The notes: generated by a model from the letters alone, not told the origin. A stretch of 64,000 bases of DNA from a virus (IMGVR_UViG_3300018405_000011), one strand, 5' to 3'; positions 3,207 through 47,041 are shown, counted from the first letter of the stretch. A program made the numbers and translations.

Positions 3207-3220
3207 AAAACCTATATTAC
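3207..3220 (+). promoter_or_regulatory. Early (virion RNAP) promoter motif
   Basis: AAAACCTATATTAC; 13-mer core recurs 6 times intergenically; contains phiKZ TATATTAC. Confidence 0.8.
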
Positions 3221-3905: not shown

Positions 3906-4758
3906 CTGTGTGTATTTGAGCCGCAATTGGTATGCGGCTCTTTTAGTCTTAATCAGTGTTTCATTAACCGTAAACGTATATTCGATACTGGAGGTCAGTG
4001 ACCTAAAAGGACAGAAAGCAGAGCTTCTGGTAAAAAAGGAAAACTTACACGACTACATCGATGAGCTCGAGTATACTAATGAAGACCTGTTAGTTCAAAT
4101 AGGCAGTCTAAAAGACGAGATGGATGAAACGGCGGATATGCTCGATACGTTGCCCTATGCTAAGCTTTGGTCACCCAAACAAAACCTTGCACAATGGCAA
4201 GAAGAGCTCTGTCTATCTATCTTACTGTTTGGTGAAGAAAGAGCCGGTTCACGTAAAGACATGGTCTTTATTGCTAACAGTGTCTATGAACGGGTAGGGC
4301 TATCGTGGTATGAAGGCAATGCCTGTCTAGTAGCAGCCGAAGGCTATGGGACGCAGTTTACATCTATGAAGCCCTACGCTAAAATCTTAAAGGAGATTGT
4401 TTGGGGTAAGGTAAAAGACTTTACACCAGTAGAAGCCCGTAGTAATGCAATCGAAGCCCGTAAATGGGAACAGATACGCAAACTGGCTAAAGATATCCTT
4501 TCGGGTAAAGAACGTAAATACATTCAGGCGACTCACTTTATCGCATTAGATAAATTAAAAGTAGTTCCTGGATGGGCAAAGGCCATGCGGCCAGTAGCCG
4601 TTTCGTCAGGCCATGTCTTTTTTACCGAGTATGATATTATCGATGGGAAAATCGTTCGCTATACAGAAGACAATCCGTTTAACCAAGCACAATACAATCT
4701 TGCAGGTTGGGAAAACCCACAGTACGACACTGCACCAATATACCTAGGGCGCTATTAA
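3898..4758 (+). CDS. SleB/Hydrolase_2-like cell wall hydrolase with N-terminal TM helix and coiled coil
   Basis: CLSILLFGEERAG (catalytic Glu), IANSVYER, QFTS, ATHF, PGWAK, SGHVFF motifs. Confidence 0.75.
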   Translation: MGNCVYLSRNWYAALLVLISVSLTVNVYSILEVSDLKGQKAELLVKKENLHDYIDELEYTNEDLLVQIGSLKDEMDETADMLDTLPYAKLWSPKQNLAQWQEELCLSILLFGEERAGSRKDMVFIANSVYERVGLSWYEGNACLVAAEGYGTQFTSMKPYAKILKEIVWGKVKDFTPVEARSNAIEARKWEQIRKLAKDILSGKERKYIQATHFIALDKLKVVPGWAKAMRPVAVSSGHVFFTEYDIIDGKIVRYTEDNPFNQAQYNLAGWENPQYDTAPIYLGRY

Positions 4759-9038: not shown

Positions 9039-9587
9039 ATGCACGCTAAACTCATTTTTGATTCATTAATTAATACCTTTAACAACATGGGGTATAAAAT
9101 CACCACTAAAGACGCCCGTAAGGTCCGTGATGCGTTTTTAAGTAGCATCATGAACATCGCTATGTCTGGTGATGAACGCCTTACCATACGCCATCTAGGC
9201 GTATTCTACAAGAGCCGTGGGAAAATGCGCTTTAAACCCGCTGCGGTTTTTAAGGACCGGCTAAACAATGGGTTTAAGTCAGGTCCTTACCCTTGTTTGT
9301 CAAAGCAAGTCATTGATATCATGGAAGCCATATTATCCGAATATCGATGGACACGAGAAGTCCATGAAAGCATCTATCGCAGTATGTTTACCTTAATAGA
9401 AACGGAATTAGCCGTCACCGGAAAGATTCGCTTTACAGGTTGGGGTACGTTTTATACGGCAGACGTGGCCCCACGTCATTATGTTACCGCTAAAGACCCA
9501 ACCGGACATGTGTTTAAACCTCGTCATATGACCGTTCGTTTTAAACCATCGACAGTACCGTCTAAAAACTTACTCAATCTTCATTAA
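9039..9587 (+). CDS. Tandem HU/IHF-like DNA-binding protein
   Basis: Two HU-like units: LTIRHLGVF...RFKPA and IRFTGWGTF...VRFKPS. Confidence 0.65.
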   Translation: MHAKLIFDSLINTFNNMGYKITTKDARKVRDAFLSSIMNIAMSGDERLTIRHLGVFYKSRGKMRFKPAAVFKDRLNNGFKSGPYPCLSKQVIDIMEAILSEYRWTREVHESIYRSMFTLIETELAVTGKIRFTGWGTFYTADVAPRHYVTAKDPTGHVFKPRHMTVRFKPSTVPSKNLLNLH

Positions 9588-30569: not shown

Positions 30570-32774
30570 TTATTTTACTGTATAGTACCGCTGTATGTCC
30601 ACGATGTCATGGTACCACACTTCACGAGAATCTATCTCTGGGATAGTAAAGTCATCGATACCTTCTAACCCCACGTCTAAATCCTCAGTCCACTCTAAGT
30701 CGTAGCCGTCTATGCCTTCTAGTCCTAACATGAACCCTACAGAAGTAATACCTCCATCACCCATCATAGCCTCTGTCATCTGTTTACTCCACTCAGCCAA
30801 GTCAAGACTACGCGTTGTTAGGTTATCTTCAGGACGTGTATCGAGTAACGGGGTTACGACGTGAACCTTAGCGTCTTGCCCTAACCGGTCAACACGACTA
30901 ACGGCTTGGTTGCGTATATGTTCTCTAAATGGAGTATCATAGAGTATAACCGTATTACACTCAATAACAGGTACAGCAGTAGACAAGGACGGATAAGTTG
31001 CTATCAAAGGGTTAGCTTCTGGATTACGCTGGAGTTCCTTCATGATGTCAGTAAGCTGACTGTTCGTATCCCCATAGACTAACAATGGCTTAAAACCATC
31101 CTTACGGACTTGCTCAGCAATTCGGTCTACAACATCCACATAAGAGGTAAAGATAAGGGTCTTTTTCTCACTCTGGTCAATAATGTCCTTAAAGGGAACA
31201 TGTGCCACCATAGAACGCAGGGCATCCATACGTAACCGAGTAATCATCCCCAATGACTCGCCCTGTATGACAAGATGTAGATATTTATATTTAGAGATAA
31301 GCTTACGAAACTCTAACGCATCCTTCTTATCCATGCGTGGTTCTATCACGTCTTTCTCGTACCTCTTTAACTGAGGGAACCAGTCCTTCTGGAGCTCCAT
31401 GCTAAAGTGCTTACGGATTTGCTCTACCTTACTGCGGTATTCCCGATAGATAGGCCATTCCTCTTTAGATAAGGTAGATTCATGGTCTTTAAGGTATTGT
31501 TCCGTTTTCTTAACGATGGTCGGTATTTGAGGTTTATAATACTCGATTCTATCTTCAATAAACTCCCTTACTTTACGACGGACTTCATTTAACGTATAGT
31601 CTTTCCCGTTAGGGATTTCGATTTGAAGAGTATATTCCTCTTTCTCGTTATTTACGACAGCTTGTTTTTCTATCTTAAAGCTTAAGCTTGTTAAACGGTG
31701 ATTTAGTACATCTAATGCACGCCCTACTGTAGCCCCATAAAGTCCCACGAAAGCCTTTCTAACGTCCTCTGTGAAGAGAGGGTCGATAGTGGTAAGGAAA
31801 GGCACTGCTTCTTTACCAATCGCCTTTAGAGGGGTACCTGAAGCCCATACGACATGGTTAGCCTGAGTTTCTTTACATAGCTGAATAAATGTATTCGTGC
31901 GAGCAGAAACTATTTCGTTAAAGTTATGGGACTCATCTAGCCATATAGTAACAACTTTATTGGCAAGCTTAGGGGCGATATCTAAAAGTCTAGGTAAGGA
32001 CTCATAATGGCAAATGAGGTATCTTTCTTTTCCTGTAGGCGGTTGCTTAGAGCTTGATATCCAATACGATTGCTCTTTACGGAAACGAGATTTTAGAGTA
32101 GCCTCCCATACCTCATGAAGCGAGTTCTTTGGTACTGCAAAGACGGTAACGTCAGAATCCATTGCTAGTGAGAATGAGAACCCAGCGATAGTTTTACCTG
32201 TACCAGGAGGGGCCGCTAGCATTAGTCCATTTAGATTTAACTTAGGTGCCTTTTCCGCGTAACTGCGTATAAAACCAGACTGCGTTTCCAATAACTTAAC
32301 ATTCATCTCCTTTTCGATGGCACGCCAGTTGATTGAAAGAGCAGGTCTTTCCTGAGCTTCTTTAATCCACGTCTTTTCATAGACAGTAGAGATAATGCTG
32401 TCTAAGGTACTATTCGCAATACGGGTCTTACGCTCTTTCATCTTTTCTAAGATGTAAAGTACCTCTAATACAAAGAAACTATGGAAAACAAGACTACGAG
32501 AGGTTAAGTCGATAAAGATAGAGTTTGCGACTCTTTGTGTCTTCCATTCGTTAAGTACCGCACTATTTAGGTCTTTAGCACTAAATCCACCTACACGAAC
32601 AATATTGTCCTTTTCTTCACAGCGAACAAAGGGCAGTGCATTAAGAATGAAGTCAAATGCCTCCATTGAATATTCGATTTCAGAAGGACTTAGGTCACAT
32701 ACGCAGGATAGATATCGGTCTGGGTTGACATCGAATATCGTATCGATATGAAAGGGGAGTTCTGTTGTATTCAT
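30570..32774 (-). CDS. SF2 (SNF2/DEAD-like) helicase, likely virion-packaged
   Basis: APPGTGKT, LDESHNF, ASGTP, KTLIFTSY, LSTAV, QAVSRVDRLGQ; N-terminal YSMEAFDF. Confidence 0.85.
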   Translation of the reverse strand: MNTTELPFHIDTIFDVNPDRYLSCVCDLSPSEIEYSMEAFDFILNALPFVRCEEKDNIVRVGGFSAKDLNSAVLNEWKTQRVANSIFIDLTSRSLVFHSFFVLEVLYILEKMKERKTRIANSTLDSIISTVYEKTWIKEAQERPALSINWRAIEKEMNVKLLETQSGFIRSYAEKAPKLNLNGLMLAAPPGTGKTIAGFSFSLAMDSDVTVFAVPKNSLHEVWEATLKSRFRKEQSYWISSSKQPPTGKERYLICHYESLPRLLDIAPKLANKVVTIWLDESHNFNEIVSARTNTFIQLCKETQANHVVWASGTPLKAIGKEAVPFLTTIDPLFTEDVRKAFVGLYGATVGRALDVLNHRLTSLSFKIEKQAVVNNEKEEYTLQIEIPNGKDYTLNEVRRKVREFIEDRIEYYKPQIPTIVKKTEQYLKDHESTLSKEEWPIYREYRSKVEQIRKHFSMELQKDWFPQLKRYEKDVIEPRMDKKDALEFRKLISKYKYLHLVIQGESLGMITRLRMDALRSMVAHVPFKDIIDQSEKKTLIFTSYVDVVDRIAEQVRKDGFKPLLVYGDTNSQLTDIMKELQRNPEANPLIATYPSLSTAVPVIECNTVILYDTPFREHIRNQAVSRVDRLGQDAKVHVVTPLLDTRPEDNLTTRSLDLAEWSKQMTEAMMGDGGITSVGFMLGLEGIDGYDLEWTEDLDVGLEGIDDFTIPEIDSREVWYHDIVDIQRYYTVK

Positions 32775-32854: not shown

Positions 32855-32867
32855 AAACCTATATTAC
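32855..32867 (+). promoter_or_regulatory. Early promoter motif
   Basis: AAACCTATATTAC. Confidence 0.8.
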
Positions 32868-32920
32868 CTTTATGAATTATTACGTTTATAAAACCCATTC
32901 TATTAAAAAAGGATAACATT

Positions 32921-33532
32921 ATGAATAAGTTACAAAACATTAAAACGGCTAAAGAATACTACGATGCCTTATCTACTCGCGTTATTGGTCAGGAACATGC
33001 TAAGCGAGCAGTAGCTGTAGCGCTACACTCTCGTGAGTTAAATGGCCTATCTGGGCAAACTAAGGGTATCCCTAATAATATCCTGTTAAAGGGCCCTACG
33101 GGTTCAGGTAAGACTGAGATTCTTCGTACCCTACAATCAGAGCTGGGCTTGCCTGTAGAGACAATAGTGGCCACAAACATTACGCCTCCTGGTTATGTCG
33201 GCGAAGATATTCAGGACGTAATAAAGCGCCTCTACGATAATTTTGATGTAACGTCTATTCCGGAATGGTATTTAGATGATTTAGAGCGAAGAAAGGAGTA
33301 TGACCTTATCCCAGAGCACCGTCGACAATTGCGGTTCTTAGAAAATCTGGATGTAGCAAGTGCGGAGTTTACATGCTGCGGGGACATCGTTGATGATTAT
33401 ATGCGAGGGGTAGACATCATAAAGGATATTCTGGTTTCACTACCCTATCAAATCAAGATACCGTTTCTTAGAAAAAGTCTAGCGGCTATTTTTCCATCGC
33501 TGGTTAGAAGCTGGGGCGCTTGTCAAGGTTGA
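32921..33532 (+). CDS. hslU: HslU/ClpX-like AAA+ N-terminal fragment
   Basis: RVIGQEHAKRAVAVAL, NILLKGPTGSGKTEI, GYVG pore loop; no Walker B before the stop. Confidence 0.75.
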   Translation: MNKLQNIKTAKEYYDALSTRVIGQEHAKRAVAVALHSRELNGLSGQTKGIPNNILLKGPTGSGKTEILRTLQSELGLPVETIVATNITPPGYVGEDIQDVIKRLYDNFDVTSIPEWYLDDLERRKEYDLIPEHRRQLRFLENLDVASAEFTCCGDIVDDYMRGVDIIKDILVSLPYQIKIPFLRKSLAAIFPSLVRSWGACQG

Positions 33533-34139
33533 AGAAGATGCCATTCACCGCTTTGAGTCTTCGGAATATAACCTTGTCATCCGTCCAACAGTAAAGGATG
33601 GCTTTCGAGCTATTGCTTTTGCTGTGGATGGCGAAGAAGACATGGAATTGGTACTTTTAACCACTTCTCATTTTACGGAATCTCAATATTTGGTGCCCGC
33701 CAAGATATCCTCTCCATACAAACGGGAAGATAAGGAACTGGTGGAATTACTCAGTGAGCGGTTATCGAATGGAGTGTATAAAGGTAAAGAAAAGAAAAAT
33801 GCTTTTCTCTTCCGTCAAGCACTATGTACACAAGCGCACTGTAATGGTCAGATTTCAAATTCATTATTTCAGGTCTATATCACTGGGCGCTTTCTAAATG
33901 GGGATTTCAATGCATTAACATATAGTCATGCAGCCGTGACAATTCTAAACCACCACATCGTGGCTTTAGGTTATAAGCGCATGCATCTTGGGAAAAGCTG
34001 GACACCGTGGTTCGAAGTCGACGGTAAACATCCTCTAGAGTGGTACCCACTTTCCTTATCTAAGATACCGAATGAAGAACAGAAGGCATTAATACTGAAG
34101 TATTTAAGGAAGCGTTTGAACGTTTCAAACAAACGTTAA
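33483..34139 (+). CDS. Hypothetical ORF, probable frameshifted continuation of the hslU-like gene
   Basis: Frame is open from 33483, 47 codons before the GTG at 33624, overlapping the hslU-like 3' end. Confidence 0.5.
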   Translation, partial: RLFFHRWLEAGALVKVEEDAIHRFESSEYNLVIRPTVKDGFRAIAFAVDGEEDMELVLLTTSHFTESQYLVPAKISSPYKREDKELVELLSERLSNGVYKGKEKKNAFLFRQALCTQAHCNGQISNSLFQVYITGRFLNGDFNALTYSHAAVTILNHHIVALGYKRMHLGKSWTPWFEVDGKHPLEWYPLSLSKIPNEEQKALILKYLRKRLNVSNKR

Positions 34140-34142
34140 AAC

Positions 34143-34174
34143 TAGAGCGTATTCCCGAAAGGGAATACGCTCTA
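34143..34174. terminator. Bidirectional terminator
   Basis: 14-bp stem with GAAA loop between convergent genes. Confidence 0.85.
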
Positions 34175-34198
34175 TGACCTTTATTTTTTTTTTATTAC

Positions 34199-43033: not shown

Positions 43034-44293
43034 ATGCAAGACTACATCAGTCAGTTATTTCTCTACGTTACCACCTTAACTGGCGGTAATGATTTTCTTA
43101 CTACGGCAATCATTGGCGGCATTGCCGTAGCGATGAGGAATATACCAAAACAAATTTATCGCAGTATTAAATATAAGCTTCGTTACGTGGTCATCCTAGA
43201 TGAAACCGGTAAAGGTAATGCGGCGATTACTAACCTAATGCAGCTTGCGGATGAATACAGTCTTTCTAAATCTACACGTATTTTCTCATTAGACTTCTAT
43301 AGTGTAAGGAGACGCGAGTTTACTTTAGTACCTGGATTAGGCACAACTCCATGTTACTATAATGGTCGCTTCTTTTTTATTACCAAAAAGGATTTACCAT
43401 CAGATGGCGCCGAAACCCAGAAGTATCGATATACGGTCGTCTATTACGGGCTAAGTAAGGCGCCTCTTTTTGATTTCTTAAATTCTAGAAAAGTAGAACC
43501 TAATTTAGACGAATACACAATCGATATAGGGGGTCGCGTAAAACCGACCAAGAAAACCTATCTTGATACGGTGACCTTAGCCGACCACGATAAGCAATTT
43601 TTTAAAGAACAAATTGCTAACTTTACAGCGAGGAAAGATTTTGCTGCGCTACACGGCATGGACCACAAAATGGTTATTTTGCTTCCAGGTGAACCTGGTA
43701 CGGGTAAAACTACCATGGCTAAGGTTATTGCTTCTGAACTCGGCAGGGATTTAGTAGTCATTAAAGCTGATGAGAATGGAGTGTCTGCACTTACGGCGTC
43801 AGAAGGTACATGTGCGAGAAGGGTCTTTGTTTTAGAAGATGCGCATTCTTATATGAATCTTCTAAAACCGGAATATTGTCAGAATGGGTTAGTATCTATG
43901 GGTAGTAAAGAAGTATCTCTGGATGCCTTCCTAGGTGTCCTTCAACCACTGGTACCCGCTAAAGAGTTAGTTCTTATTATAACGGCTAATGACTTGGATA
44001 AATTACACCCTGCCATTTTCAGACCGGGGAGAGTGACTGCCATACATGAACTGTCTAGGCTATCGCCGGACCTTGTTAAAGAAGACTTAACTAAGGTTTA
44101 TGGTAACGAACTTGAAAATATTAAAGTCAGTATGTCATGGAGGGGCTGCGATTTAGCGATGTTTAAAGAACTGTACTATACAAGACAGTACCAACCACAG
44201 CAGCTGATCAATTATATCGAGCACGAAATGCCTCCTTTACCTGAGGTAAGGCATAACAATCTTTCTGACCACACTTTAAAACTGGTCAGCTAA
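43034..44293 (+). CDS. BCS1-like membrane-anchored AAA ATPase
   Basis: N-terminal TM; BCS1-like linker; LLPGEPGTGKTT, FVLEDAH, LIITAN, LHPAIFRPGRV. Confidence 0.75.
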   Translation: MQDYISQLFLYVTTLTGGNDFLTTAIIGGIAVAMRNIPKQIYRSIKYKLRYVVILDETGKGNAAITNLMQLADEYSLSKSTRIFSLDFYSVRRREFTLVPGLGTTPCYYNGRFFFITKKDLPSDGAETQKYRYTVVYYGLSKAPLFDFLNSRKVEPNLDEYTIDIGGRVKPTKKTYLDTVTLADHDKQFFKEQIANFTARKDFAALHGMDHKMVILLPGEPGTGKTTMAKVIASELGRDLVVIKADENGVSALTASEGTCARRVFVLEDAHSYMNLLKPEYCQNGLVSMGSKEVSLDAFLGVLQPLVPAKELVLIITANDLDKLHPAIFRPGRVTAIHELSRLSPDLVKEDLTKVYGNELENIKVSMSWRGCDLAMFKELYYTRQYQPQQLINYIEHEMPPLPEVRHNNLSDHTLKLVS

Positions 44294-46627: not shown

Positions 46628-47041
46628 ATGAAAAGTTTTAAGAAACATATCTTTAATGCTACGTATGAGTGGCTGATAGAGAACGGTAAACGCCCTTACA
46701 TCATCATTGACTTTACAAATGAGCAAGTCATTGCTCCGGCTGGTTATGACCGCGACGGTTATCTTGTACTGAATTTATCACCAAATGCAATTGGTGACTT
46801 CCTCGTCAATGACGACGGCATTTCTTTTAAAGGTGCATTTAATGGGAAACGTCAGGCCGTTTCACTACCTTGGGATGCGGTGGTGAGATTATATGCTGAT
46901 GGCACCGGCGAGGGATTAAGCGACATGGCTGCCGATGAATGGCGTAACCAAATGGACATGTGGAGTATCCAGTGCCCGCGAGATGAAAGTACTAATGTAA
47001 AGCCTACTGAAAACAAACCTAAACTGTCTATTGTTAAATAA
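46628..47041 (+). CDS. sspB: Stringent starvation protein B (ClpXP adaptor)
   Basis: ATYEWLIENGKRPYI, LVLNLSPNA, ISFKGAFNG, LPWDAVVRLYA..TGEG, C-terminal PKLSIVK. Confidence 0.9.
   Translation: MKSFKKHIFNATYEWLIENGKRPYIIIDFTNEQVIAPAGYDRDGYLVLNLSPNAIGDFLVNDDGISFKGAFNGKRQAVSLPWDAVVRLYADGTGEGLSDMAADEWRNQMDMWSIQCPRDESTNVKPTENKPKLSIVK

Follow-up and report, generated by a model that had tools for sequence, protein, structure and literature searches.

HslU-like ATPases of jumbo phages

Nucleus-forming jumbo phages carry HslU-like AAA+ ATPases as accessory genes. In phage RAY, gp116 is an accessory gene described as a member of the "HslUV protease family" and its product is located inside the phage nucleus (Prichard et al., 2023, PMC10299810). 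RAY gp116 probably belongs to the phrog_4339-type family, as the related phage Ea35-70 carries a member. A tblastn search of phage records with the N-terminal piece of the gene described below returned about 150 records, mostly from Erwinia, Salmonella, Cronobacter and Pseudomonas jumbo phages. The members of this family are single full-length genes of 569-687 aa, e.g. Kwan gp148 of an Erwinia phage (580 aa), CR5_127 of a Cronobacter phage (687 aa), Machina gp129 (578 aa) and Ea35-70 gp115 (569 aa). Their Pfam layout comprises a Walker A half, an insertion of 270-400 aa and a Walker B half that matches AAA_2, and the insertion begins after the pore-loop helix at a common IPxW[YF] motif.

The locus described here was found in a stretch of viral DNA of 64,000 nucleotides (IMGVR_UViG_3300018405_000011), referred to as the window, with positions counted from its first letter. 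Like the phrog_4339 members, it lies in the accessory setting of a nucleus-forming jumbo phage, but no more than the first third of the gene is left in the window, without the Walker B half and small domain that the members have. The HslU-like family is absent from all five complete genomes among the more distant relatives, and the gene is therefore regarded as accessory and dispensable. An HslU-like gene adjoins the neighboring helicase gene in none of 25 more distant relatives that were found via the helicase.

The truncated gene and the frame behind it

The truncated HslU/ClpX-like gene, ORF1 (32921-33532, + strand), extends from ATG 32921 to TGA 33530-33532 and encodes 203 aa, with a ribosome-binding site AAGGAT at 32909-32914 on the + strand, 6 nt 5' of the ATG. 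Residues 3-123 are HslU/ClpX-like, and the top PDB chains are HslU 7mhb (E 6e-17) and ClpX 6wr2 (E 7e-16). ORF1 shares helix alpha-0, IGQ-x-x-AK and 35-47% identity with bacterial HslU (ClpY; 7mhb, 1g4a, 1do0) and ClpX (6wr2, 3hws), as well as their Walker A GPTGxGKT and GYVG pore-1 loop. The features that characterize the HslU/ClpX clade in HMM and PDB alignments, i.e. alpha-0 together with the GPTGxGKT P-loop of Walker A and the aromatic-hydrophobic GYVG pore-1 loop, are thus all present. Both motifs are canonical: Walker A reads GPTGSGKT (aa 58-65, nt 33092-33115, + strand) and the pore-1 loop GYVG (aa 91-94, nt 33191-33202, + strand). The first-pass annotation had described an HslU N-terminus with Walker A and a GYVG pore loop in an ORF ending at TGA 33532, and the PDB matches, phrog_4339 and the sequence agree with it. 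The best virus family for ORF1 is phrog_4339 (E 1e-27, profile positions 3-122 of 552). ORF1 keeps the family motif as IPEWY, and the IPxW[YF] motif places it in the phage family rather than with ClpX. A full-length match to the 552-position profile is not reached, and from its sequence the window gene is a fragment of a phrog_4339 member, not a complete member.

Unlike bacterial HslU and ClpX, ORF1 has no Walker B, sensor-1, arginine finger, sensor-2 or small domain, and it is also without the HslV-docking tail, zinc-binding domain and IGF loop of these proteins. Pfam AAA covers just profile positions 1-50 of 131, and AAA_2 (PF07724), which marks the second half of the AAA module in intact relatives, has no match in ORF1. 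Neither Pfam (AAA_2, ClpB_D2-small) nor the HMM found a sensor-1, an arginine finger, a sensor-2 or a C-terminal small helical domain. With filters off, a ClpX HMM constructed from 106 hits aligned to aa 3-110 of ORF1 only, gave -3.2 bits for the tail (aa 105-203) and found no Walker B (hhhhDE, strand beta-3) before its alignment ended at aa 110; the same HMM recognized three domains, including Walker B and arginine finger, in the intact protein of the relative described below. AlphaFold2 with 42 aligned sequences gave pLDDT above 60 for aa 1-124 only and below 50 for aa 125-203, and the model has no complete sheet. ORF1 holds alpha-0, beta-1 with Walker A, alpha-1, beta-2, the pore loop and alpha-2, and is without beta-3 to beta-5 and the inter-subunit elements. 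The lack of Walker B and sensor motifs noticed at first pass is therefore confirmed by Pfam, the ClpX HMM and AlphaFold2.

A MAFFT alignment hinted that the ORF1 tail might be a degenerate Walker B/sensor region, with WYLDD aligned to YIDEID of ClpX, and this was rejected by the ClpX HMM. WYLDD itself (aa 116-120) only resembles a Walker B: Kwan and CR5 have no acidic pair at that position, and their true Walker B lies about 300-400 aa 3' of it.

The stretch at 33284-33521 (+ strand, 238 nt, ORF1 aa 122-200) lies between two blocks of homology and contains the junction of the deletion proposed below. No part of five family members, nor the N-terminus of the 266-aa protein described below, shows significant similarity to it, and Smith-Waterman comparison of the ORF1 tail with the insertion domains of the five family members gave z below 1.2 against shuffles. 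Codon-usage support here is weak for the ORF1 frame yet the best among the three frames, and pLDDT is below 50. The insertion (I) domain probably begins here, in diverged form. A third-frame segment at 33307-33375 (21 aa) resembles residues 368-388 of the relative's ATPase (9 of 21 identical, z 5.4, tblastn E 2.4), but was judged a chance match because stops abound in the third frame and its codon usage is poor; if the match were true, more than one deletion would have occurred inside the HslU-like gene.

The +1 frame is open from 33483, directly 3' of TAG 33480-33482, to TAA 34137-34139, and overlaps ORF1 by 50 nt (33483-33532). The overlap contains a run of five T residues on the + strand (T5, 33489-33493), and skipping one base within it gives a 405-aa read-through product (P0001). 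This much of the first-pass description, i.e. the open frame from 33483, the T5 run and the 405 aa obtained by a one-base skip, holds in the sequence. Codon-usage log-odds trained on the long ORFs of the window favor the ORF1 frame up to about 33460-33490 and the +1 frame from there on.

The +1 frame belongs to another gene. Residues 125-405 of the read-through product, used as a query against 5.8 billion proteins, gave one match, a 266-aa protein (P0122) of the relative. Frame-2 nt 33522-34136 align to it without gaps over 205 aa with 51% identity (E 2e-75), and 33522-34139 (+ strand) is accordingly a 3' remnant homologous to P0122 residues 62-266, which lacks the first 61 or so codons, the start codon and the ribosome-binding site. 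Among 1.8 billion representatives the family consists of P0122 and the window product (P0123) only; a third listed match, to a 1,803-aa protein, was discounted as weak (E 2e-6 over eight short stretches). The gene is referred to as the orphan gene, since it matches no Pfam or PHROG family. Its part of the locus had no tblastn match in phage records, the ESM Atlas gave no lead, and AlphaFold2 of the 266-aa protein (pLDDT 38) was too poor for a fold search. DNA searches of phage records found no match, and scans of IMG/VR with ORF1 and with the +1 frame (ORF2) found no relative.

Comparison with an intact locus

The only close relative, Logan contig SRR22535648_29911 (L003), is syntenic with the window. 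The L003 protein was missed by a whole-protein word search, which was swamped by ClpX, and was found by a region-restricted search. Synteny is anchored by a divergent SNF2/ResIII helicase gene (30570-32774, - strand, 734 aa; Pfam ResIII, Helicase_C), the product of which is 78% identical to its L003 counterpart. Both sequences have the order helicase (-), HslU-like gene (+), orphan gene (+) and minus-strand genes, with 33-89% amino acid identity. The HslU-like gene of L003 is complete: its 594-aa product covers phrog_4339 positions 5-518 of 552, matches Pfam AAA, AAA_2 and ClpB_D2-small, and has a Walker B (IVFIDEIDK), sensor-1 and arginine finger. ORF1 aa 9-121 align to L003 ATPase residues 10-127 with 42% identity and no other part aligns. 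Between the ATPase and the 266-aa gene of L003 lie a terminator, made up of a hairpin (-20.7 kcal/mol) and a U tract, and then a strong ribosome-binding site, AGGAG. L003 thus has both genes whole and separate with a terminator between them, whereas the window has two remnants that are out of frame; the promoter motif, the ribosome-binding site of the ATPase gene (context AAGGATAmCATTATG in both), the flanking helicase and the downstream minus-strand genes are alike. The interval between the homology blocks is 1,652 nt in L003 vs. 238 nt in the window. About 1.4 kb is thus missing, a difference not divisible by three.

The L003 ATPase also has a Walker-B-like WFIDEL right after the pore-loop helix (residues 121-127, L003 4511-4531), about 285 residues 5' of its true Walker B IVFIDEIDK, and the window has WYLDDL (33263-33286) at the same position. 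This could be a vestige of the origin of the giant insertion domain, the insertion having duplicated the target strand, or a coincidence.

We consider it likely that the locus is a deletion scar, in which the front of an HslU-like gene has been joined out of frame to the back of the next gene. An ancestor resembling L003 would have had one early promoter, an HslU-like ATPase gene of about 590 codons, a terminator and a separate 266-aa orphan gene. In the ATPase a large insertion domain would have parted the Walker A half from the Walker B half, and a small domain would have completed the protein. The window lineage would have lost about 1.4 kb, with one end of the deletion within the insertion domain and the other near codon 60 of the orphan gene. 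This would have taken away the whole Walker B half and small domain, most of the insertion domain, the terminator and the beginning of the orphan gene. The outcome would be a 203-aa fragment with intact signals, a startless orphan remnant near the promoter, and the original downstream terminator. Several findings characteristic of a gene remnant come together here, i.e. an intact orthologous locus, homology blocks that end at one junction, the loss of parts and an allele that is reproducible. The ORF1 stop (33530-33532) lies within a few codons of where the orphan-gene homology begins, and the frame switch coincides with the jump in homology from one gene to the other, which points to an out-of-frame deletion junction. 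The exact breakpoint within the junction stretch is blurred because the window and L003 are too diverged. A Walker B half was not found in the remainder of the 64-kb window.

A deletion is preferred to a gain because the family norm is full-length and a third of an AAA+ core is not an ancestral functional unit; with one close relative, the direction of change is suggested by parsimony and this norm. No short fragment like ORF1 was found in a second lineage, where tblastn gave long genes only. The deletion is probably recent, judging from the sequence of both remnants, as neither has decayed further: against phrog_4339, the N-terminal 130 aa of ORF1 reach 99.9 bits and the same part of the intact L003 protein 92.7 bits, and the orphan remnant has 205 uninterrupted conserved codons. 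Of the two outcomes that the first-pass annotation had put forward, the decaying gene is supported by the synteny with the intact L003 locus and by the missing parts. The other, a chimeric, ATPase-dead HslU mimic encoded as one gene, did not survive the comparison, since L003 has two separate genes with a terminator and ribosome-binding site between them. That annotation had looked to homologs for either a full-length gene or two genes, and L003 has a full-length 594-aa gene as well as a separate 266-aa gene.

The truncation is a real allele in the assemblies compared, and a one-off assembly error is very unlikely. The exact 203-aa product, including the out-of-frame tail, occurs on 12 contigs from JGI, ENA and Logan assemblies. 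The loci of JGI 3300018411, JGI 3300018412 and ENA ERZ27247441 match the window with 100% identity over 5-6.6 kb, and Logan contigs of SRR7974114 and SRR7974361 carry the same pair of 203-aa and 171-aa genes. The contigs that match the exact helicase or the exact 107-aa neighbor all have this 203-aa and 171-aa arrangement, and no intact allele was found among them. The T5 run at 33489-33493 is the same in every assembly compared. The switch of frame at a homopolymer might suggest that the frameshift is a sequencing or assembly artefact and that the gene is in fact intact or fused in frame. This is scarcely credible: the same allele in many assemblies, from three pipelines and several runs, argues against a sequencing error, T5 is too short for short-read errors, and the Walker B half would be missing even if the locus were read in frame.

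Programmed +1 frameshifting at A-UUU-UUC-C (33488-33495), yielding a functional 405-aa chimera, would account for some features of the overlap. The two frames share 50 nt, tRNA-Phe on UUU could slip onto UUC in the +1 frame, and codon usage changes frame exactly there. The ORF2 frame has no start for 47 codons, yet those codons are conserved with P0122. Furthermore, ORF1 stays open for about 80 codons past its homology, and this, together with the 205 conserved codons of ORF2 on both sides of any start codon, speaks against a deletion scar in that it would also fit a fusion that is translated and selected. The site itself offers none of the features that programmed frameshifting normally uses. 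It has no slow, rare or stop codon in the A site, no Shine-Dalgarno-like stimulator upstream and no stable RNA structure around T5 (z +1.4). The parts are separate genes in L003, the sole relative, the two-frame arrangement occurs in no homolog, and the N-terminal piece of such a fusion would be just a partial AAA+ core. A programmed frameshift is therefore regarded as highly improbable.

A second difference between the two sequences lies 3' of the orphan gene. L003 6811-8979 carries two extra genes (350 and 331 aa, without Pfam or PHROG matches) 5' of the common terminator, which are absent from the window (34130-34145) and would have been removed from the window lineage or never gained. A GTTAA pentamer is present at both edges of the extra L003 segment, and microhomology may have been involved in its loss or gain. 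The common terminator is intrinsic and is located at 34143-34193 (+ strand), with a 14-bp hairpin at 34143-34174 (-25.2 kcal/mol, z -8.3) and a T10 tract at 34184-34193, and the minus-strand genes that converge on the locus share it. The window remnant has its stop codon inside GTTAAAACTAGAG, a conserved sequence leading into this hairpin. The homologous hairpin in L003 is at about 9088-9121, where it follows the two extra genes. One pair of the hairpin shows a compensatory change, G-C in the window and A-U in L003, which indicates that the structure is under selection.

Predicted products of the remnants, and the remaining ATPase and adaptor genes

The signals in front of ORF1 are intact. A promoter-like motif, TATATTAC, at 32860-32867 (+ strand), 53 nt upstream of ATG 32921, corresponds to the phiKZ-type early promoter consensus (PMC7058600, Table 2), and the same motif occurs in L003 at 4098-4105, in the same place upstream of the intact gene. 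By analogy with phiKZ, the motif at 32860 would be an early promoter. TATATTAC occurs 11 times in the window vs. 4.3 expected, and 10 of the 11 occurrences are on the + strand, a distribution that fits a phiKZ-type set of early promoters. Examples are found at 3213, 19605, 21517, 32860, 37677, 44327 and 59638, several of them shortly 5' of + strand genes. With both the promoter motif and the ribosome-binding site intact, the phage probably still produces the 203-aa fragment at an early stage of infection.

Such a fragment could in principle have been retained as an early, ATPase-dead N-terminal decoy that poisons or redirects the HslU or ClpX rings of the host. Its promoter motif and ribosome-binding site are not only intact but conserved, its Walker A and GYVG loop have canonical sequences, fixation of the allele is seen in several samples, and the phage also has an SspB homolog. 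The piece outscores the N-terminus of the intact relative both on the ClpX profile (82.7 vs. about 60 bits) and on phrog_4339 (99.9 vs. 92.7), but a recent deletion explains this lack of decay equally well, and no such fragment was found in a second lineage. Of the five core strands three are absent, there is no Walker B, sensor-1, arginine finger or small domain, and the AlphaFold2 model has no complete sheet and a disordered tail. Incorporation into a hexamer is structurally implausible, as parts of the subunit interface are missing according to established AAA+ architecture. From the established AAA+ fold, the fragment should be unable to bind or hydrolyze ATP as an AAA+ module or to form a ring, and the polypeptide is expected to be unstable and inactive. 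A decoy is thus very improbable. The same low expectation applies to a deletion that was co-opted afterwards, in which the early 203-aa product, or a 405-aa product of rare +1 slippage, would serve as a decoy or poison subunit for host HslU/ClpX, or as an adaptor acting together with SspB and the proteasome-like genes of the phage; if this were true, a deletion accident would have been turned into a host-takeover factor.

The orphan remnant might also be functional in shortened form, as a protein of 165-171 aa, in which case only the HslU-like gene would be dead. The first in-frame start candidates of the remnant are GTG 33624 and ATG 33642, none being present in its first 47 codons, and public gene callers start it at 33624 to give a 171-aa product (P0123). 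Conservation in the family is highest in blocks within this part, and the 205 codons of the remnant are free of stops and frameshifts. The starts themselves are less favorable, as there is no Shine-Dalgarno sequence at a usable distance from either: GAAGAAG ends 2 nt 5' of ATG 33642 and nothing precedes GTG 33624. About 95 N-terminal residues would be gone, including predicted beta-strands (in a low-confidence model, pLDDT 38), and the codons at 33522-33623 are conserved though they would be left untranslated. A functional short protein is for these reasons considered unlikely.

The window encodes a second, intact AAA+ ATPase, a 419-aa protein at 43034-44293 (+ strand) in which the PF00004 AAA domain is complete (aa 215-339, E 1e-11) and an N-terminal region of 200 aa has no Pfam match. 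Its Walker A region is the only other, weak match to the L003 ATPase. The SspB homolog is encoded at 46628-47041 (+ strand; Pfam PF04386, E 7e-15). In RAY, the SspB homolog gp039 is reported to be cytoplasmic (PMC10299810).

Taken as a deletion scar, the locus removes a false lead, as there is no new chimeric "HslU mimic" but an ordinary gene loss in a known accessory family. For annotation, the public calls of 203 aa and 171 aa each represent a fragment of a different gene, and both should carry the label of a remnant. The allele is fixed in an environmental phage population, and this phage does without the accessory HslU-like ATPase. It provides a natural knock-out, i.e. an environmental nucleus-forming jumbo phage that has no HslU-like ATPase and has PPH peptidases and SspB, and it could be taken as a tentative argument that the proteasome-like (PPH) peptidases are independent of the HslU-like ATPase.
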